Positions 2,891-24,300 of a stretch of DNA of 64,000 nt are shown here, in pieces (within the stretch, counting starts at the first letter, position 1; each line of letters starts with the position of its first letter). The position numbers and the translations under genes are program-made. Location: the NCBI GenBank assembly GCA_039815185.1, contig JBCBZT010000017.1, forward strand, positions 72,348-136,347, read 5' to 3'. Origin of the DNA: Cyanobacteria bacterium P01_A01_bin.123. Its GTDB lineage: Bacteria > Cyanobacteriota > Cyanobacteriia > Phormidesmidales > Phormidesmidaceae. The notes beneath the pieces are model-generated. The model had not been told where the DNA came from, did not search any database, and saw only the letters and a program-made list of their open reading frames with translations.

Positions 2891-4282
2891 TCAAGCATTG
2901 ACCATAGTCTTTACCTGAGGCCCGGTTTCAGGTTCTTCAAGCCCAGGAATTTCATCGTGGCCTGTAATCAAGCGAACACCGCGCTTGCGTGTGAAGTAGT
3001 TCCAGGCCCACTGGGTCATCACCAATAGTTTATTGTCAAACTCCACCAGATAGTAGATATGAACAATAATCCAGACAAACCAGGCTGGGAACCCCCACAT
3101 CTTTAAGAAGCCCAGGTCAACGACCGCAGCATTGCGGCCAATCACAGCCATGCTACCCTTATCGCTGTACTGAAACTGAGGCATTTCAGCACCAGTAATC
3201 CGGCTTTGAATCACCTTCGCAATGTGTTCACCCTGCTGCATTGCAACTGCCGCAACCCCGGGTAACGGCTTGTCATCGCCCTGGTGGGCATAGTGAGCTA
3301 AGTCACCCACGACATAAAGATTGCTGTAGTTGGGAACGCTCATGTCAGGCTCCACAATTACCCGACCCACCCGGTCGAGTTGAGCACCCGTGCGCTCAGC
3401 AATCACACCTCCCACGGGGGATGCTTTCATACCTGCCGCCCAAAGAACGGTGCAGGCTTGTTGTTGGCTGATTTCTTCACCGCTACGGAATGTTACCGTA
3501 TCCCCTTCAATACCCGTCACTAAGGTTTTGGTGCGGATTGTTACGCCCAGCTTCTCTAAGGCTGCTTGGGCCTTAGCCGAGAGTTCCGGTTTGTAGGGTG
3601 GCAGCACCCGATCCATTCCTTCCACCAAAATGATTTCGGTTTGGGCGGTATCAATCGCGCGGAAATCGTCCTTCAACGTGTCATAGGCCAAATCAGCCAG
3701 TGCCCCAGCCAGTTCCACCCCAGTTGGCCCGCCGCCCACAATGACAAATGTTTGTAACGCCTTCCGTCTGGCAGGATCTGTGGCCTTTTCTGCTGCTTCA
3801 AAAGCCAAGAAAATCCGACGGCGAACTTCCAGTGCATCCTCAACGGTTTTCATCCCGGGGGCGATGCTCGACCACTCATCTTCCTTGCCAAAGTAGTGGT
3901 GGCTGACGCCAGTGGCCACAATCAAACTGTCGTAGCCAATCACCTCACCATTTTTAAGGGAAACCCGTTGGTGATCAGCATCAATGTTGGTCACCTCACC
4001 CATAATTACCTGGGCATTCTTTTGGCTACTTAAGACAGCCCGTAGGGGGGAAGAGATGTCTCCAGCGGATAGCCCTCCAGTTGCGACCTGATAAAGCAGT
4101 GGTTGGAACAAATGAAAGTTGCGTTTATCGATCAACGTAATCTTAACGGGGGCTTTAGCCAGGGATTTAGCGGCGTAAAGACCTCCAAAGCCACCACCGA
4201 CAATGACAACGTGGTGAAGAGGTGTTTCTGGGCCAGAGGTAGCTTGATGAGACGGTGAGGGACGCTGGAGAACTGCTGTCAT
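2891..4282 (-). CDS. Type II NADH dehydrogenase (NAD(P)/FAD-dependent oxidoreductase)
   Basis: VVIVGGGFGG, FQPLLYQVATG, IVGGGPTGVELAG and YVVGD motifs. Start probably ATG at 4282 (MTAVLQ), though the ORF extends to 4339. Confidence 0.9.
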   Translation of the reverse strand: MTAVLQRPSPSHQATSGPETPLHHVVIVGGGFGGLYAAKSLAKAPVKITLIDKRNFHLFQPLLYQVATGGLSAGDISSPLRAVLSSQKNAQVIMGEVTNIDADHQRVSLKNGEVIGYDSLIVATGVSHHYFGKEDEWSSIAPGMKTVEDALEVRRRIFLAFEAAEKATDPARRKALQTFVIVGGGPTGVELAGALADLAYDTLKDDFRAIDTAQTEIILVEGMDRVLPPYKPELSAKAQAALEKLGVTIRTKTLVTGIEGDTVTFRSGEEISQQQACTVLWAAGMKASPVGGVIAERTGAQLDRVGRVIVEPDMSVPNYSNLYVVGDLAHYAHQGDDKPLPGVAAVAMQQGEHIAKVIQSRITGAEMPQFQYSDKGSMAVIGRNAAVVDLGFLKMWGFPAWFVWIIVHIYYLVEFDNKLLVMTQWAWNYFTRKRGVRLITGHDEIPGLEEPETGPQVKTMVNA

Positions 4283-14683: not shown

Positions 14684-16330
14684 ATGCTCGCTTCTTCTAA
14701 TATGTCCCGCCAGGGCGAAATCATTGAGGTTGTGTTCCGCAACGGCTGGGACTACATGCGGCAGTTGCTCAGCGGCAGCAAAACCGATGAACCTGAGTTA
14801 CCGCCGCCGGCAGTGCTGTGCAATATCTTGATCGAGTTAGGGCCAGTATACGTAAAGCTAGGGCAGTTGCTCAGTACCCGCCCCGATTTATTGCCAACCA
14901 GTTACATCGAAGCGCTGAGTTCGCTTCAGTCTACGGTGCCAGCTATCCCTGCCTCAGAGATGGAGGGGTTTATTCGCCGGCAGTTACCCCGCCCCCCGGA
15001 GGAGATTTTTGCAACGTTAGACTATACCGCGATCGCGGCGGGCTCCATCGGCCAAACTCACCGTGCCACGCTCAAAGATGGTCGGGCCGTTGCCCTCAAA
15101 GCGCAGCGCCCAGGCATCGAACACCAGGTCGAGCGCGATATGGCCTTGATCCGTGATGTGGCCAAGTTGGTCTCAACGACACAGTTTGGGCAGCGCTATA
15201 ACGTGTTGTCCTTAGCCGATGAATTTGCCGAAGCCCTAAGTAATGAACTGGACTTTACCCAGGAAGCCACCTACACCGATCAACTACGGCTAAGTTTGAG
15301 CCGCACGAACTGGTATGACCCCAAGCGTCTAGTTGTCCCTCAGATCTATTGGGAACTGACCAGTCCTAAATTGATGGTGATGGAGTGGCTCAACGGTAAG
15401 CCAATACTGAAGGCTGCGATCGCCCAAGCAGAAACCTCCAGTGCCAAAACCCAACGGCAAGCCATCACCACCCTGCTGTTTCGCGCTTTTTTCAAGCAAT
15501 ATTTCATCGACGGATTTTTCCATGCCGATCCTCACCCCGGCAATATTTTCTATCTCGACGATGGTCGTGTTGCCCTACTCGATTGCGGTATGGTCGGTCG
15601 CCTCGATCCCCGCACCCGCGCCACGATGACCGATATGGTCTTGGCGATATTTAGCTGTGATGCCGAACGCTGTACCCAGCTTACGATGCAACTGGCTGAA
15701 CCCCTCCAACCGGTTAACCTAACGAGCTTAAAAAACGACTACGATCGCTTACTGACCCGCTACTACGGCCTCGACCTTGAAAAAATCAGTACAGCCGAAG
15801 TGTTCGGTGAACTGCTCGGAGCTGGGGTCAACAACCATCTTCGTTGGCCCGCAAACATTGGCCTATTCACCAAGTCCATTGCTAATCTGGAAGGCGCAGC
15901 CCGTCAGTTTGAACCCAAAATAAATTTGATGGCTGAAGTCCAGCCACTGATGCCCGATCTGCTCCGCCATCAGTTGATTGGGGATGATCCACTGCGTACT
16001 TTGCTGCGTACGGGCCTAGAATTTCGCAACTTGACTGTGGATTCCCCGCGCCAGTTTGGATTTATACTCGATCGCCTGAGCGAAGAAACCCTAAAGTGGA
16101 ACCTCAACATCCAGGGGGTAGACGGCCTCCGCAGCAGCATTGACAGAGCAGCCAATCGACGCTCATTTAGCACTGTGGTGGCTGCCTTGATTATTGGGGC
16201 AGCTGTTATTTCAACCGGGCAGCAATCGACCCAACTCCAATGGTTGAGTAATGGCCTGTTTGCAGCCGCTACGCTTCTAGGACTGTGGCTAGTGATCAGT
16301 ATTTTGCGTAGCGGCAATCTGCGCAGTTAA
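14684..16330 (+). CDS. ABC1/AarF/UbiB atypical kinase
   Basis: LGPVYVKLGQLLSTRPDLLP, AAGSIGQ, ELDF..E, FFHADPHPGN and LDCGMVG motifs, with two C-terminal TMs. Confidence 0.95.
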   Translation: MLASSNMSRQGEIIEVVFRNGWDYMRQLLSGSKTDEPELPPPAVLCNILIELGPVYVKLGQLLSTRPDLLPTSYIEALSSLQSTVPAIPASEMEGFIRRQLPRPPEEIFATLDYTAIAAGSIGQTHRATLKDGRAVALKAQRPGIEHQVERDMALIRDVAKLVSTTQFGQRYNVLSLADEFAEALSNELDFTQEATYTDQLRLSLSRTNWYDPKRLVVPQIYWELTSPKLMVMEWLNGKPILKAAIAQAETSSAKTQRQAITTLLFRAFFKQYFIDGFFHADPHPGNIFYLDDGRVALLDCGMVGRLDPRTRATMTDMVLAIFSCDAERCTQLTMQLAEPLQPVNLTSLKNDYDRLLTRYYGLDLEKISTAEVFGELLGAGVNNHLRWPANIGLFTKSIANLEGAARQFEPKINLMAEVQPLMPDLLRHQLIGDDPLRTLLRTGLEFRNLTVDSPRQFGFILDRLSEETLKWNLNIQGVDGLRSSIDRAANRRSFSTVVAALIIGAAVISTGQQSTQLQWLSNGLFAAATLLGLWLVISILRSGNLRS

Positions 16331-16400: not shown

Positions 16401-18071
16401 TTAGGCTTTGCGATCTGTCTGATTGTCTGCCTGATTTAAGACGAGCAAGTCGTTAGCGGCTTCCACCACCACCACCGGTAATGGACTGGTTGCCAAGACA
16501 GCTTGAGAAACGGACCCCACGATTACCTCATCCAGGGGGCGATGGCCGCGTTTACCGATGACAATTTCACTAACGCCGTGCGCTTGGGCTGTCCGCACAA
16601 TTGCTTCCGGCACCGATCCATCGGCGGTAATAACCCGATGGCGAATGTCAGCCAGGAGTTGCTTGGCCCGGTTGCGCAGCCGTCCCAACGCGGTGGGATC
16701 ATCGACCCGAATAACATGCAGCACGACCACTTCAGCATCACTGCGACGAGCGAGGTCGGCAGCTTTGGTCAGTACCTGAGTGGCTAGCGGAGAGGTATCC
16801 ACTGCCGCCAGCAAGATAACGCGATGGGAAACGGCGACTTTGGTCGGATCTACCTCACCGCGCTCCAGCAATTTGGGGGCAAATGTGGGAATTGCCCAGG
16901 CCCCCAACGGGGCAGTTACCAGAATGGATAGAGCAGCCAGCGCCAGAATCGTTTCTCCGCCGTCGATACCCTGGGCCAGAGGAACTGCCCCAATCGCAGC
17001 TTGTACTGTAGCTTTCGCCGAATTGCCCGACAGCAGAAACAGCCGCTCTTTCCAGTTCCAATTACTCCCTAGGGTAGACAGATACCACCCCAGCGATCGC
17101 CCGACTAGCGTCCCGATCGCTAGCACCAGCAAGCCGACCAGTAAGGTATTGCCGAGAACATCCAGTTGAATACTGGCCCCCAGCAGCACAAACAGAATGA
17201 TCTCGGCAATCACCCAAAGGCTATCAAAACCACCGCGCAATCGCCGCGCTAGGGGGGTATCCAGCTCAATCAGAAAAAATCCAGTGGCCATCACCGCTAA
17301 ATAGCCAGAGAACACCGGAAAATCATCTGCCAAGACCACTAGTAAGAGGGCAAAGCCCGCTGCCACTAAGGCATCCTGAACCGCATTTTGAGTCCAGTTT
17401 TGCTTTGCCAATAGCAATACCAGCATACGAGCTGTGACCCAGCCCAATAGCACCCCCAAAGCAATTTGGGTGATGATCTGAAACGGTAACAGTTGGATTG
17501 GGCTGAGGGTAAGACCACCTGGGAGGGACATGCCGATTGACGCATGTTGAGACAGAAACGCCAACAACAAGCTAAACACCAGCAGCAGCAGTACATCAGA
17601 GAGGGCACTGCCGGTCAAAATAGCATCCGGGATGCCTTTTTTGACCCCCCATCCCAGGCTTTTCAGCCGCAGCATTCCTGGTACGATCACCGCTGGCGAT
17701 TCGGCTCCAATCAGACAACCCAACAACAGCCCGGTAGCTACATCAAACTGGAACAGCCACATCGCCGCCAGGGTAATGGCGATCGCTTCACAGGTCGCTG
17801 GCAAAAATCCTAACCGTAGGGCCACCGATCCTTGCTGAGCCAGTTTTTCTCGGTCTAGCCCCAATCCTGCTTTCATCAAAATCACCATCACGGCAATGGT
17901 GCGCAGAGAATCTGATGCTCCCAAAACCGCTGGGCTAATGACGTTGCCCACCTGAGGGCCAATCACGATACCCACGAGCACCATGCCCACCAACCCAGGC
18001 GCTTTTAGCCGTCGAGCGATCTGCCCGACGAAAAAGCCCATCAGTAAAATCCAGATAATGCTTGCTAACAT
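16401..18071 (-). CDS. Cation:proton antiporter fused to a C-terminal universal stress protein domain
   Basis: Multi-TM with ESPAVIVP, SALSD and KATVQAAIG motifs. USP motifs LAAVDTS and IVIGKRG..IVGSVS. Confidence 0.9.
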   Translation of the reverse strand: MLASIIWILLMGFFVGQIARRLKAPGLVGMVLVGIVIGPQVGNVISPAVLGASDSLRTIAVMVILMKAGLGLDREKLAQQGSVALRLGFLPATCEAIAITLAAMWLFQFDVATGLLLGCLIGAESPAVIVPGMLRLKSLGWGVKKGIPDAILTGSALSDVLLLLVFSLLLAFLSQHASIGMSLPGGLTLSPIQLLPFQIITQIALGVLLGWVTARMLVLLLAKQNWTQNAVQDALVAAGFALLLVVLADDFPVFSGYLAVMATGFFLIELDTPLARRLRGGFDSLWVIAEIILFVLLGASIQLDVLGNTLLVGLLVLAIGTLVGRSLGWYLSTLGSNWNWKERLFLLSGNSAKATVQAAIGAVPLAQGIDGGETILALAALSILVTAPLGAWAIPTFAPKLLERGEVDPTKVAVSHRVILLAAVDTSPLATQVLTKAADLARRSDAEVVVLHVIRVDDPTALGRLRNRAKQLLADIRHRVITADGSVPEAIVRTAQAHGVSEIVIGKRGHRPLDEVIVGSVSQAVLATSPLPVVVVEAANDLLVLNQADNQTDRKA

Positions 18072-18250
18072 TACGCCACGTTGAGGTTATAGCGCTTCCC
18101 TGTTGGCTAAGGGACGAGTTTCAGGGCGAAAGGCTTTCGCCTTACAGCACTGTATACCCCATGCCAATGGCGTGGCTATAAATCGGTGAACCAACGTGGC
18201 TTGCAGCAGAGAGACTTGCTTGAGACGACTATAGCCCTACCCGTTCACCG
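18072..18250 (-). promoter_or_regulatory. Candidate cis-regulatory structured RNA leader (riboswitch-like) of antiporter
   Basis: Several overlapping inverted repeats, one of which pairs with the sequence 3 nt upstream of the ATG (see findings). Confidence 0.55.
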
Positions 18251-18312
18251 CAGGATAGGGTAACCCGTACGAACACCTTAAAGCGTTACCGGATGAAGCA
18301 TTAAGCCGGACA

Positions 18313-21300
18313 TTAGGCAGCGGTATTGACCAACTGCTCTAACGTTTTCAAGAGTACATGCTCGTTGTATGGCTTAGAGAAATAGGCGTTTGCGCCCAGG
18401 TTCATGGCGATCTGGCGGTGCTTTTGACCACTGCGAGACGTTAACATAATCACCGGAATCGGTTCAAATGTGGCGTCTGCTTTCGCTTTGCCCAGGAAGC
18501 CATAGCCATCGAGTCGGGGCATTTCAATATCGCAGATTACAGCCTGGGGCCGCAATCCCTCTTGGAGCTTATCGAGGGCGTCTTGCCCGTCTCGTGCCTG
18601 TTCAACCCGATAACCCGCTTTTTCTAGGGTTAGGGCTAAGAATCGCCGGACGTTAATAGAGTCGTCCACAATCAACAGGGTCGGTCGAGTGTGAGAGGCG
18701 ATCGCGGGCAGTAGCCCCGATTGGCGACGATCGGAGTCAGGTAATTCGTAAGCTGATTTGACTGCGAGTTTAGGTTCTGCCATATTGGAGCGCTGATTGC
18801 TGGTAATCCAGCGCAGCAGTTCTGGAATACTGACCAAGGGCACAACCCGGCCATCCCCCAAAATCGTACAGTTGCTAAAGCCAGCAGGTAAGGGTAAATC
18901 TCCCTCAACCCGGCGGATAGCCACCTCCTGCTCACCCCAACAGCGATCGACTTGCAAGCCAACGCACTGCCCGCCATTGTTAACGACTAAAACCGTAAAG
19001 GTATCGATCGCTGGCGGCGTCTCTAACTTGTAATTCGGGCGGGGGCCATTGAAGGCTAACCAATCGGAGAGGCGGACTAGGGGAATCAAGCGATCGCCCC
19101 ACTTAAAGCCTTCATGCTGGGCCGTTGACATGACCGCTTCTGGTGGTAGCAAGAGAATTTCTTCCATCACGTCGGTTGGAATGGCCAAAGCCATATTCCG
19201 ACTTTCAGCCAAGAGGATGCGGGCGACCGATAGCGTAAAGGGAACCGATAACGTAAATGTGGTGCCCTGACCCGGTTCAGTATCTACGGTGATCTCGCCA
19301 CGCATCTGCTTGAGATTGTTGCGCACCACATCCATACCGACGCCTCGGCCAGACAGATCGGTCACTTCAGTCGAGGTCGAAAAGCCCGGTTCAAAAATGA
19401 GTGACAGCAATTCTTGATGGCTAGCCGCAGCTAAAAGTTCGGCGTCTAGCCCCATTTGCTCAGCTCGGCGTCGAACTTTGTCAAGGGGAATGCCGCGACC
19501 ATCATCTTTAACCGTAATCAGAGTGCGGTTCTGGCGATGGGTGGCGCGAATCTCAATTAAGCCCTGGCGAGATTTGCCGCTCGTCATTCGCGTATTGGGA
19601 TCTTCAAGTCCATGGTCGAACGCATTACGCAACAGATGCATCAATGGATCGGCCAGGTTCTCTAGAATATTGCGATCGACTAGGGTATTGCCGCCCACCA
19701 CTTTGAGCTCAACCTCTTTGTTGTGCTCTAAACAAAGATCCCGCAGCGCTCGTGGGAAGCGCTCTAGGATATCAGATAGGGGTCGCATCCGGACTTGGGT
19801 GAGTCCGGTTTGCAACTGCTTGCCTGTTTTGTTGAATTTGCGCCCGGTTTGCTCGGTTTCTTCGAGTTCGAGTTCAACGTCGCTGGTGACCTCCTGAATC
19901 TGGACGATAGTTTCCATCATCTCCTGGGAAAGGAGATGCAGGTCACCATAGCGGTCCATTTCTAGGGTGTCGAAGGTATTACCATGCCCATTGGGTTGCT
20001 GAGTGGCCGCATCCGTCAAAGGCTGAGGTTGGGCGTCAGCGGCGGGTAGTAAGCGCTTAGGCTCAACCAGGCGCTGGCCAACGGCAACCTGGTCGTAGGC
20101 AGAACGCAACTGGCTATTGGCTTGATCTAAGGTTTGAACCCGTTGTTTGAGCTTGTCGATTAGACCCCGGAGCCGACTGACATTGAGCGTCAGGCTGTTG
20201 CGCTCAATGGTGAGTTCACCCATCAAATCGTTGAGCGCGTTGAGCCGCTTAACCGATACCCGCACGTTAGTATCTTGCTCTTCTTCCTCGGGTGGGGAAC
20301 TGTCCGGCTTGACTTCTAAGGGCCTACCGCTTTGAGCCGGGGGTGTCGCGACCTCATCATCTATGGAGAAGCTGGCATCGCTGATGACTTCAGCGGCAAC
20401 TGAGAAATCAGGCAACTCAGTGGCTTGCGAAGATAACTGAAAGTCAAAGTCAGCGGCATCTGCGGCAGTGACTGGGGGCTCAATTGGCGCTGTGGTAGGC
20501 CAAGTCTCTATATTGTCAGCCGTGACGTCTGTGACTGCAATGTCTGCCAGTGGAACCTCTGCTGCTGACAGCTCTGGGGAAGCATCGAAATCGGCGATTG
20601 ATACCGGTAACAGACCCATTTGCCCGGTGAGCACCAGCGCCTGAGACTGCCGCCAAGCCGCCACTGCCTGCTGAGCAATGATGCCGTAGTGTTCAGGTGT
20701 TGCTTCCAGCTGGGCTGTGACCGACTGACACAGGGCAGTAAAGGCAGATATTTGCAGCATCTCCCCTAGTCCCTGTAGCTCCTGCGCCAGGATCAGCACT
20801 TCTTCATTCAGACAGGGCTGTTGCGGGTCGGCTAAGATCGCCTCTAGCCGCTGTAAGCAGCCTTCGACCTCAGTCTCAAACAGCATCGGGATAATGTCTT
20901 GCCCCTCTTCCGGTGATAGCATCGAGGCGGCATCCTCTTCTTGGGGATCGCCCAAGCGTTGGTGCAGCTGCTCAAAAATCGGCTCAACTTGATTTTCCAA
21001 CCACGCCTGCTCTACGGGGAGTTGCTGTCGATTCAAGCCAATCACTTGATTTAAACAGTCAACCCCAGATAGCAACAATTGCTCTAGCTCTGGGTCTATC
21101 TCTAGCTGCTGCTTCTGAATCTTCAGCACTTTGAAGGAATCTTCTAGCCTGTGTGCTAGTCGATTCAGGACTGAATACCCCATCATGCCAGCACCGCCTT
21201 TAATGGAATGGGCCGCCCGCAGGGCACCATTAATTTTTTCGGTGTCGACTTGGCTATGGGCCACGCCCAGCAGAGCCGCCTCTAAGGTGCCAAGATACTC

Positions 21301-21354
21301 TTGAGCTTCGTCGAGAAACTGCAGCCTAATTTCCAGTTCCCTAGCGTCCGACAT
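18313..21354 (-). CDS. cheA: Hybrid CheA-like histidine kinase (HPt, HATPase, CheW, REC), operon 1
   Basis: AAHSIKG, HLLRNAFDHG, DDGRG, GFST..SGRGVGMDVV and C-terminal VDDS..CDIEMP. Start probably 21354. Confidence 0.95.
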   Translation of the reverse strand: MSDARELEIRLQFLDEAQEYLGTLEAALLGVAHSQVDTEKINGALRAAHSIKGGAGMMGYSVLNRLAHRLEDSFKVLKIQKQQLEIDPELEQLLLSGVDCLNQVIGLNRQQLPVEQAWLENQVEPIFEQLHQRLGDPQEEDAASMLSPEEGQDIIPMLFETEVEGCLQRLEAILADPQQPCLNEEVLILAQELQGLGEMLQISAFTALCQSVTAQLEATPEHYGIIAQQAVAAWRQSQALVLTGQMGLLPVSIADFDASPELSAAEVPLADIAVTDVTADNIETWPTTAPIEPPVTAADAADFDFQLSSQATELPDFSVAAEVISDASFSIDDEVATPPAQSGRPLEVKPDSSPPEEEEQDTNVRVSVKRLNALNDLMGELTIERNSLTLNVSRLRGLIDKLKQRVQTLDQANSQLRSAYDQVAVGQRLVEPKRLLPAADAQPQPLTDAATQQPNGHGNTFDTLEMDRYGDLHLLSQEMMETIVQIQEVTSDVELELEETEQTGRKFNKTGKQLQTGLTQVRMRPLSDILERFPRALRDLCLEHNKEVELKVVGGNTLVDRNILENLADPLMHLLRNAFDHGLEDPNTRMTSGKSRQGLIEIRATHRQNRTLITVKDDGRGIPLDKVRRRAEQMGLDAELLAAASHQELLSLIFEPGFSTSTEVTDLSGRGVGMDVVRNNLKQMRGEITVDTEPGQGTTFTLSVPFTLSVARILLAESRNMALAIPTDVMEEILLLPPEAVMSTAQHEGFKWGDRLIPLVRLSDWLAFNGPRPNYKLETPPAIDTFTVLVVNNGGQCVGLQVDRCWGEQEVAIRRVEGDLPLPAGFSNCTILGDGRVVPLVSIPELLRWITSNQRSNMAEPKLAVKSAYELPDSDRRQSGLLPAIASHTRPTLLIVDDSINVRRFLALTLEKAGYRVEQARDGQDALDKLQEGLRPQAVICDIEMPRLDGYGFLGKAKADATFEPIPVIMLTSRSGQKHRQIAMNLGANAYFSKPYNEHVLLKTLEQLVNTAA

Positions 21355-21358
21355 TGTC

Positions 21359-24300
21359 TTACCCCTCAGCGTCAACTTTGAATGTGCCAACCGATGATTG
21401 AAGCTCTTGAGCCACAGCTACAGTAGAGTGCAGGGCATCAGAGACATGCCGTGATGAGTCAGAAGTCTGCTTGGAGGCTTCTGCAACCGTATGCATCAAT
21501 TTGGAAACGGATGTAGACGTTTCTACCTGAGATACCGTTGCCGTTGAAATGGATTGCACCAATTGATCAATTTGGCGAGAAACGTCCAGAATTTGACCCA
21601 GGCTGGCTTTAGTCTCTTCTACTGAGCGTGTTCCCTCGACCACTTGCGTCGTGCTCTGCTCCATGGCTTCGACTACCTCGGCGGTCTCTCGCTGAATGGC
21701 TTCGACGATTTTCTCAATTTCTTGAGTCGCGTTGGAAGAGCGGTTTGCCAGTTCGCCTACTTCTTCCGCGACTACGGCAAAGCCCTGACCTTCTTCCCCA
21801 GCGCGGGCTGCTTCAATTCCCGCGTTGATGGCCAGCAAGTTAGTTTGTACTGCGATTTGGTTAATCAGCGAGACAACCCTAGAGATTTGCTGAGAGGATT
21901 CGCCCAGACGTTTCACCTGCTTAGCAGTCGTCCCTACCGTCTCTCTTAGCGTTAGGATATTTTGTTCTGTCCGATTCATCGCCATACTGCCAGTTTCGGC
22001 TGTCAAGGCAGCAGTGCGCGTCACTTGGGCTGCTTGACGGGCGCTTTCAGCGACTGACTCGATTGATTGGGTCATGGTTTCAACCGAGCTGAGCGCATCA
22101 GTGATGTTTTCAGCCTGGCTTAGGGCTTTGTCAGCCAGTTGACGAATCGCCGCCTCGTTGTCACCGACGGATAGGTTTACCTGTCGAGCGGAATCTTTTA
22201 CCTGAGTTACGATTTGCCGCAAACTCTCGATAATAGAGTTAAAGAAGTCAGCTACGGTGCCGATGTCGCCTGCGGTAACGTCGGCACGAACCGTCAAATC
22301 ACCGCTGGATGCGCCTTCTATTTCACTGAGCAGATTGACAAGCTGCATCTGCAGAGCTTCTTTTTGCTGCTGTTGTTCGGATGCGATCGATTGCGCTTGG
22401 TCAGCCGCGGCTGCTCGCTGAATCAATAGATCACTGCGATCAAGGGCTGAGCTAACCTGGGTTGTTACCTGGGTAAAATACTCAATTTCTGAATCCTGCC
22501 AGTCGCGGGGGCCAGAACATTGGTGAGCAATCAACAACCCCATTAGCTGCTCGCCTCTATTGATTGGGGCGACCAGATTGGCTTTGACGGCAAAGGGCTC
22601 TAGCTGTCTGAGGTGGCACTCTGTTAGCCCTGCTTTGGAGATATCTGGGGTAGCTTGAACTCGCCCCTGTTGATACTTGTTGACGTAATCTTTTTCAAAA
22701 CAGGGATCATGGATTTCGGCGTTAAGGGCACGGGGCCACTCACTGTCTACTGATTCGTGGGTAACTGTCCCTTTCCAGGTTTCGTCGAAGCGATAAATGA
22801 TTACTCGATCTGCGTCGATGTTTTGTCGAATTTTGGCTAAGGGCAGCTGGGCCAAAATGGCTTCCGGTGTTTCCGCTTGGGTGGCTTCCAGGGTAATGTT
22901 CTTTAGGGATTGAGCGTATTCGGTTGCGACTTCCCGCTGGACTAACAGGTCGCTGCGGTCGAGAGCTAAGCCAATCTGGGTTGCAATTTGGGCAAAGAAG
23001 TTGATTTCCTGCTTTTGCCAGTCGCGGGGGCCAGAGCATTGGTGGGCAATCAACAGTCCTATTAACTGGTTGCCTTTCTTGATTGGGGTAACTAGGTTGG
23101 CTTTGACGGCAAAGGGTTCTAGCTGCCTGAGGTGACACTCTGTCAGGCCAGCATTGTAGATATCGGGGGTGGCCTGTACCCGTCCCCGTTGGTATTTGGC
23201 AACATAGTCTTTTTCAAAGCAGGGGTCGTAGATTTCAGCACCGAGGGCACGGGGCCACTGGCTGGCCACAGCCTCGTGGGTAATGGTGCCTTTCCAAGTT
23301 TCGTCAAAACTATAAACTAGGATCCGATCTGCCTTGATCGTGTTGCGTACTTTCTCTAGGGGTAGCAGGTTTAGAACCTTCTCTGGGGTTTCAGCTTGGG
23401 TAATCTCAAAGGTGAAATCTTTGAGAAACTCTGCCCGTTCTGCTTCTGACTCTCGCCCTTGCAGGAAGGTTAACTGATCCAGCATGTTGCCGAGCTGGGC
23501 TGCCAATTGCCGCATAAAGGCGACTTCTGAGTCTTGCCAAGCGTGGACTTGAGCGCAGTGATGAGCAATGAGCAACCCAAAGAGCTGGCCTTCTCTCAAA
23601 ATCGGCACCACTAGATTGGCCTTAATTTGCAGCCGCTCCATTAGCCTCAGGTGGTTGGGATGGAACCCGGCATTGAAGACATCGCTGGTGGGCACCACCC
23701 GATCTTTCTGATACGCCTTAATCAGGGCTGGGGGAATGCAGGGGTCTTCGATTTCGTCATTGAGGGCTTGAGGCCAGCCTGAGGCAACTGACTCATGGGA
23801 GATGTAGCCACTCCAGTCTGGGTTGAAGCGATAAATCACCATGCGATCGACCGCGAGTGCAGTGCGAGCATCCGTCAATGCCTTGTTGAAAACCAGGGCT
23901 AAGTCTTGTTGATTGCGAACCTGGGAACCGACAATTTCTGATAGCAGGCGGGCTTGATCGGCGGCATTGGTTTGGGCTTGCAAAAAGTCCTTGACTCGGA
24001 TGACTAGGGCGTTAAAGGTAATGGCTAAGGTTTGGGCTTCGCGGGCACCACTGGGCACGGCGGCAACATCTAGATTGCCGGCGGCCACTTCTTTGGCGGT
24101 GCTTGACAGATACCGCAGCGGGCTGGAGATTTGGTTGGCGAGGCGCAAAATAATCGCTACGGCTACGCCAGCAGCAGCAAGTATGGCCAAGACGAAAATC
24201 AGAACGAGTTGTCGACCAGCGGCCTCTAGTTCGCTGTTGTCAACGGAAGCGATCGCCATCAGGCTAGTCCCCTCAATCATAGAGAGGTAATACTTACGCC

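Follow-up and report, generated by a model that had tools for sequence, protein, structure and literature searches.

A probable remnant of a fluoride riboswitch in the leader of a cyanobacterial cation:proton antiporter gene

The antiporter locus and the helices of its leader

The DNA analysed here, a stretch of 64 kb referred to in its whole length as the window, carries on its minus strand an intact gene for a cation:proton antiporter. The initial annotation had named the gene so from the letters alone, and Pfam agrees, finding a Na_H_Exchanger domain (PF00999, E 1.9e-31) followed by a C-terminal Usp domain (PF00582, E 3e-20); the K+/H+ antiporter models of NCBIfam match the protein weakly, all under their cut-offs, and orthologues in relatives share 64–87% identity. 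Immediately upstream lies a gene for a CheA-like hybrid histidine kinase, in which Hpt, dimerisation, HATPase_c, CheW and receiver domains are recognised. The kinase gene probably belongs to a chemotaxis-like operon for motility or phototaxis whose 3' end now borders the antiporter leader; none of the other orthologous loci compared has such a gene in front of the antiporter. The spacer between the two genes constitutes the leader under study (table 1). A consensus scan of positions 17900–18700 for promoters of the sigma-70-like type found none, and the two terminator-like sites recorded in a scan of the same region both fall within the CheA-like ORF. Just past the CheA stop codon the sequence, judged by eye, resembles an imperfect tandem duplication in which UCCGGCUUAAUGCUUCA is followed by UCCGGUAACGCUUUAA (18300–18275, minus strand). 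On the other side, a gene for an ABC1 atypical kinase (14684–16330, plus strand) converges on the 3' end of the antiporter gene, and the gap of only 70 nt leaves no space for the crcB genes that are found downstream in relatives.

Table 1. Features of the antiporter locus, in positions of the window.
Feature	Positions	Strand	Basis or remark
Antiporter gene	16401..18071	-	556 aa, intact; ORF list
Relic end: last part of C loop, C 3' strand, start codon, first codons	18061..18092	-	nhmmer
Leader under study (whole spacer)	18072..18312	-	241 nt, from the stop codon of the CheA-like gene to the antiporter start codon
Hairpin C, 3' strand CAACGUGGC	18075..18083	-	ends 3 nt before AUG 18071-18069; pairing check; nhmmer
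Lineage-specific insert in C loop	18093..18177	-	~85 nt; gap between two nhmmer matches
Platform relic	18178..18252	-	nhmmer profile match; MAFFT alignment A3
Segment missing in close strain	18179..18277	-	99-nt deletion polymorphism; run X6 contig
Hairpin C, 5' strand GCCACGUUG (ancestral start-proximal hairpin)	18192..18200	-	pairing check; homologous columns in 43 orthologues
Stretch without significant similarity to orthologous leaders	18253..18312	-	60 nt; place expected for aptamer and T 5' strand
CheA-like hybrid histidine kinase gene	18313..21390	-	upstream of antiporter; Pfam

The initial annotation described four helices in the minus-strand transcript of this leader, A to D, and proposed that they form a possibly uncatalogued ion- or pH-responsive translational switch. 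All the quoted strands lie at their minus-strand coordinates and every helix pairs as claimed: A comprises 7 bp plus 4 bp with one G-U pair and B 8 bp, while C, whose 3' end is 3 nt from the AUG at 18071, has 9 bp and its extension C2 7 bp. Hairpin D is likewise present, with the correction that its 8-bp complement is built around a single middle base and is effectively a stem of 7 bp with a 3-nt loop. Between 18250 and 18072 (179 nt) there are five perfect Watson-Crick stems of at least 7 bp, against a mean of 0.64 in dinucleotide shuffles, and none of 500 shuffles reaches five; the excess of long stems is thus real. The count of two stems of at least 8 bp is reached by 7 of 500 such shuffles, and that of one stem of at least 9 bp by 16 of 500. 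The minimum free energy of the 253-nt leader (-76.5 kcal/mol) is close to the shuffle mean (-77.0, sd 4.6; z = +0.12), with 104 of 200 shuffles folding at least as stably. In the full-leader ensemble, the mean pair probabilities are 0.70/0.65 for A, 0.59 for D, 0.18 for C, 0.13 for C2 and 0.04 for B, and folding predicts the 12 nt nearest the start codon to be largely paired (unpaired probability 0.03–0.32, depending on the 5' end chosen).

Searches with Rfam 15 recognised no family on the leader strand, either at the gathering score or at E up to 10. The sole match in E-value mode was to the L31-leader on the opposite strand (17 bits, E 0.48). In the whole window a single match reaches its gathering score, a Cyano-1 RNA (RF01701; 11153–11221, plus strand; 49.7 bits against a gathering score of 41), which fits a cyanobacterial origin of the DNA.

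Fluoride riboswitches and their expression platform in orthologous loci

While Rfam is silent on the leader itself, it does recognise a family upstream of the orthologous antiporters. The fluoride riboswitch (crcB motif, RF01734) lies directly 5' of the antiporter gene in 8 of the 19 orthologous loci scanned, with 36.5–52.9 bits against a gathering score of 34; a scan of positions 17950–18450 at E up to 10 found none in the window's own locus. Among 41 genomes (40 relatives and the genome studied here), nine contain RF01734, each in a single copy, and in all nine it adjoins the antiporter orthologue. We collected 107 distinct orthologous leaders, that of the window included, from relatives and public genomes, and compared them with a 193-position profile built from 37 complete aptamer-bearing leaders which are themselves among the 107. 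The aptamer part was found in 52 leaders, the platform only in eight (the window and seven others), the start region only in three and nothing in 44. With seven further leaders reduced to the platform, such relics evidently recur.

The arrangement of the orthologous loci is regular. In about half of the orthologues the aptamer lies ~105–120 nt upstream of the ATG and is followed by a conserved, covarying expression platform; when leaders were instead found by pattern, the 3' motif of the aptamer stood 100–135 nt before the ATG in 44 of 46, the remaining two having inserts. Of 44 leaders, 27 have a TATAA box 5–30 nt in front of the aptamer. The gene crcB was present inside the fetched flanks of 11 of the 52 aptamer-bearing loci, in none of the 47 loci without a trace of the leader and in none of the seven relic loci, and it follows the antiporter gene directly in three genomes (G027, G032 and G036). 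In some relatives one or two crcB genes stand directly downstream of the riboswitch-controlled antiporter (for example at 3180–3521 and 3679–4017 of locus L009, and in G027 and G036), so that a single fluoride operon exists there. The positions of aptamer, TATAA box and crcB thus define an ancestral unit of promoter, aptamer, platform and antiporter gene, to which crcB is added in some genomes.

The platform was analysed in an alignment of 43 leaders (A2), from which L013 and L020 were omitted for their large inserts and L105 for a platform identical to that of L077. In stem T, the aptamer 3' strand CUCCUAC and the following UUCCG pair with CGGAA..GUAGGG; 86% and 93% of the cells of these two parts are paired in the 43 orthologues, and as the stem is nearly invariant it offers little covariation. 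A second helix, AT, joins the loop and 3' strand of T to a segment about 60 nt downstream, just before hairpin C, which it overlaps by the first 3 nt of C only. Its cells are paired in 82.8% of cases compared with 34–47% when the partner is slid, 11 of its 16 pairs show changes on both sides, its covariation of 0.311 exceeds anything obtained by sliding (at most 0.129), and RNAalifold selects it independently. Hairpin C, which ends 3 nt 5' of the AUG, is formed by alignment columns 108–116 with 140–148; 77.4% of its cells are paired and six of its nine pairs are changed on both sides. The suggestion that C covers the start region is thereby borne out, since in the orthologues it is a conserved, covarying hairpin over the bases just before the start codon. 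Six or more T within 10 nt past stem T were counted in only 4 of the 43 leaders, and T is thus mostly no classical terminator.

We modelled bound fluoride by blocking the 3' strand of the aptamer in silico. The mean unpaired probability of positions -12 to -1 rose from 0.305 to 0.403, a modest change, with increases in 31 of 46 leaders and decreases in five, and an example leader (L003) was shifted from T plus C to AT. Together with the covariation, these thermodynamic predictions suggest a translational relay of three helices, T, AT and C. Without fluoride, T would form and the partner of AT would remain free, C would close over the bases before the AUG and expression would be off. With fluoride bound, the aptamer pseudoknot would hold CUCCUAC and free the 3' strand of T to pair in AT; the first 3 nt of C would then be taken, C would be loosened, initiation would be eased and expression would be on. 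The conserved T/AT/C platform of the orthologues is directly testable.

Na+/H+ antiporters are reportedly among the genes associated with fluoride riboswitches. The crcB motif has been reported from the 5' UTRs of genes for ion transport and other functions; terminators often overlap it, and ligand binding is expected to raise expression (PMC2864571). The cyanobacterial platform looks like a translational relay rather than the usual terminator. In Enterobacter cloacae, a fluoride-induced operon has been described that combines a Usp gene with crcB (PMC5533749). Our searches of the open-access literature returned no paper on a cyanobacterial antiporter leader with a fluoride riboswitch and nothing relevant on riboswitch loss. 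The other candidate relatives are riboswitches for cations: the Na+-I (DUF1646 motif) and Li+ (nhaA-I) motifs are included in Rfam 15. They resemble the proposed switch in controlling cation:proton antiporters, as Na+-I riboswitches frequently do for Na+/H+ antiporters (PMC9971707), but the window leader gives no Rfam 15 match to them and its relatives carry a fluoride, not a cation, aptamer.

Relic platform, insert and deletion in the window leader

Two matches to the profile were obtained in the window by nhmmer with filters off, profile positions 94–166 of 193 at 18252–18178 (24.4 bits, E 8.8e-10) and positions 161–192 at 18092–18061 (11.9 bits, E 5.7e-6). Positions 1–93, comprising the aptamer as well as the loop and 5' strand of stem T, have no match in the window under the same settings at E up to 10. 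In a MAFFT alignment of the window with 43 orthologous leaders (A3; L013 and L020 again left out for their large inserts), the first match reads, in order, as the T 3' strand GCGGUGAACGGGUAGGG, a variable spacer, the AT 3' strand CUGCUGCAAGCC, the C 5' strand and the first part of the C loop. The window leader is thus homologous to the 3' half of the platform of fluoride riboswitch leaders, in which the aptamer stands at a fixed distance. It differs from those leaders in that their defining element, the aptamer, is missing, as are the promoter and the T 5' strand. Where the ancestral promoter and aptamer would be expected, the CheA-like gene has its stop codon.

The fluoride riboswitch would still work if its aptamer had diverged beyond the reach of the models and lay partly inside the 3' end of the CheA-like ORF. 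Two local features point this way: GCUGCCUAAUGUCCGGCUU (18321–18303), at the CheA stop codon, bears a weak likeness to the 3' end of the aptamer and the start of stem T, and an 8-bp hairpin of CCCUAUCC (18260–18253) with GGGUAGGG (18242–18235), with a pair probability of 0.25, mimics stem T. The likeness of GCUGCCUAAUGUCCGGCUU is a marginal hint, as its Smith-Waterman score of 22, obtained by comparing the 148 nt upstream of the relic with the consensus aptamer half, is reached by 43 of 1000 shuffles. Against this reading, which we regard as next to negligible in probability, stand the RF01734 and nhmmer results just given and the absence from the window of the aptamer motifs that are invariant in all 43 aligned orthologues. 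Furthermore, no CrcB protein or crcB gene was found in this genome (99.99% complete), whose best RF01734 match (18.9 bits) lies elsewhere, inside an ORF of 853 aa. The leader does stand 5' of a gene that other members of RF01734 control. It contains no aptamer of at least 34 bits with P1, P3 and the pseudoknot-forming strands, and no platform competing with an aptamer 3' strand, the competing 5' strand being absent while positions 94–192 survive. Because it has no aptamer, the window leader cannot be counted as a fluoride riboswitch.

The gap between the two profile matches is an insert in the loop of hairpin C which is absent from all 43 aligned orthologues. Its near-terminal 7-bp inverted repeats, UUAUAGC and GCUAUAA, are the two strands of helix C2 (18181–18175 with 18093–18087); it also contains hairpin D (18141–18125) and the 3' strand of helix A, and as a whole it is palindromic and folds as a single long imperfect hairpin. 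In its inverted ends, hairpin fold and hairpin-loop site it resembles the small palindromic insertions (MITE-like hairpin elements) of cyanobacteria, from which it differs in being single-copy: the 8.09-Mb genome holds no other copy, the best other BLAST matches being 24–30 nt long (E 0.016 and 0.06). The insert has terminal repeats as such elements do, and without a second genomic copy it cannot be called a mobile element; the 5' 76 nt of the leader likewise occur only once in the genome. In another species (locus L013, ~3130–3359, minus strand) the same C loop carries an unrelated, near-perfect palindrome of ~110 nt, with the stem kept, as though this loop tolerated or attracted insertions.

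Sequencing runs of close strains reveal further change in the same leader. A contig of 10,973 nt from run X6, ~97% identical, spans both flanking genes, with CheA and antiporter still adjacent. It aligns to 17700–18178 and 18278–18700 with 28 other letters in 902 bases and a clean joint that skips 99 bases. The deletion removes the entire upstream relic, and with it both strands of helix B and the 5' strands of helices A and C; this part of the leader is thus dispensable in a close relative. In run X5 a contig with ~98% identity has the leader free of gaps. A second joint, in run X2 (from 18194 to 18305 with 8 other letters between), was set aside as its support is too weak (depth 6.8, a side of 30 letters).

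A probable decaying remnant and the alternatives

We consider it highly probable (at about 85%) that a fluoride riboswitch leader has been decaying in the window and is now a remnant that no longer senses anything. The ancestral order would have been a TATAA-type -10 box, the fluoride aptamer (crcB motif), stem T, helix AT, hairpin C and the antiporter gene, sometimes with crcB. A rearrangement would have put the CheA-like gene directly upstream, at the cost of promoter, aptamer and T 5' strand; the 3' strands of T and AT would be left, together with hairpin C and the palindromic insert of ~85 nt in its loop. Expression of the antiporter may now be independent of fluoride, either through transcription continuing from the upstream operon or by a promoter that has escaped recognition, and hairpin C or the alternative pairings would at most damp initiation constitutively. 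On this reading the leader is the output half of a catalogued riboswitch with an insert, and no new ion sensor.

The proposal from which we started, a functional uncatalogued ion- or pH-responsive translational riboswitch in which A (or B) alternates with C/C2 at the start region, draws on real features. The helices exist as written, A and C2 share a strand, long stems exceed chance, Rfam finds no family on the leader and the gene encodes a cation:proton antiporter. It was also right in part, in that the leader descends from an ion-sensing riboswitch and that C does belong to a mutually exclusive set, in the orthologues. What does not hold is its novelty and its sensing: the homologue of the leader is the output half of a catalogued riboswitch, RF01734, and with the sensing aptamer gone a ligand-responsive switch is unlikely in the window. 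Helices A and B, moreover, are without conservation or covariation in the 43 orthologues, where 44.9% of their cells are paired compared with 44.6% in shuffles and 30–50% when slid, 197 of 500 shuffles reaching the observed value; for helix A, this outcome had been named beforehand as one that would speak against the switch. The 3' strand of A, C2 and D all lie in the insert that the orthologues lack. Helix A is the tail of the T 3' strand paired with the left end of the insert, and helix B an altered T 3' strand paired with the C loop, each a product of chance or newly arisen. Neither of the segments put forward as a conserved core is conserved in the alignment with 43 leaders: AGUCGUC belongs to the variable stretch that follows T, GGUUCAC to the C loop, which also varies. 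C, the ancestral hairpin, explains the excess of long stems together with C2 and D, which are the inverted ends and the internal palindrome of the insert; this leaves A and B, two stems of 7–8 bp, at about the chance level (~0.6 expected). The overall folding energy equals that of shuffles, and in the ~97%-identical strain helix B is missing altogether and helices A and C have lost their 5' strands. BLAST of the leader against 172 other genomes of the same family recovered the start-codon end and five short matches of 21–25 nt only, and thus no close relative of the leader's DNA. We therefore hold a new switch of this kind to be extremely improbable. Only C is conserved, as part of the fluoride leader, and with no conserved structure of its own the leader does not represent a new riboswitch class.

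The relic may have kept or gained a role that needs no ligand: hairpin C, extended by the inverted ends of the insert, could damp translation constitutively, affect RNA stability, work as a thermometer or be bound by an sRNA or protein. In its favour, all nine pairs of C are intact, and C is also kept in five aptamer-less leaders (L004, L040, L043, L084 and L139) and around the independent insert of L013; the bases nearest the start codon are, as noted, predicted to be mostly paired. The survival of C at 9/9 bp despite the loss of the sensor could reflect continued selection; the gap-free leader of run X5 also counts against the remnant reading. Yet the close strain has lost the 5' strand of C, 44 of the 107 leaders are without a trace of C, and the probability of C in the full-length ensemble is low, which together make such a role unlikely in our estimation. 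The long-stem excess (0 of 500 shuffles) and the predicted probability of ~0.7 for helix A also make a newly evolved structure possible. We see only a very small chance that the leftover platform and the insert, as A/B versus C/C2, have been re-used in the marine lineage as a new switch on antiporter translation; were this so, the cue might be temperature, pH, a cation or a trans-acting factor, and the output domain of a riboswitch would have been re-wired to a new input.

Read as a decaying remnant, the locus removes a false lead, as its riboswitch-like helices are no new ion sensor, and it documents the decay of a riboswitch, with sensor and promoter lost by rearrangement and the partner gene crcB lost from the genome. 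The orphaned platform would now be eroding: one strain has acquired the insert, and a close relative has lost 99 nt. The orthologous loci have a meaning of their own, in that many cyanobacteria have one fluoride riboswitch per genome, and it controls a Usp-fused cation:proton antiporter, sometimes with crcB downstream. A cyanobacterial-type antiporter with 82% identity was also encountered on three contigs binned as Methylobacter or Methylomicrobium MAGs (L128, L129 and L130), which could be a matter of mis-binning or of horizontal transfer; at least two of these contigs carry the fluoride aptamer together with the platform.
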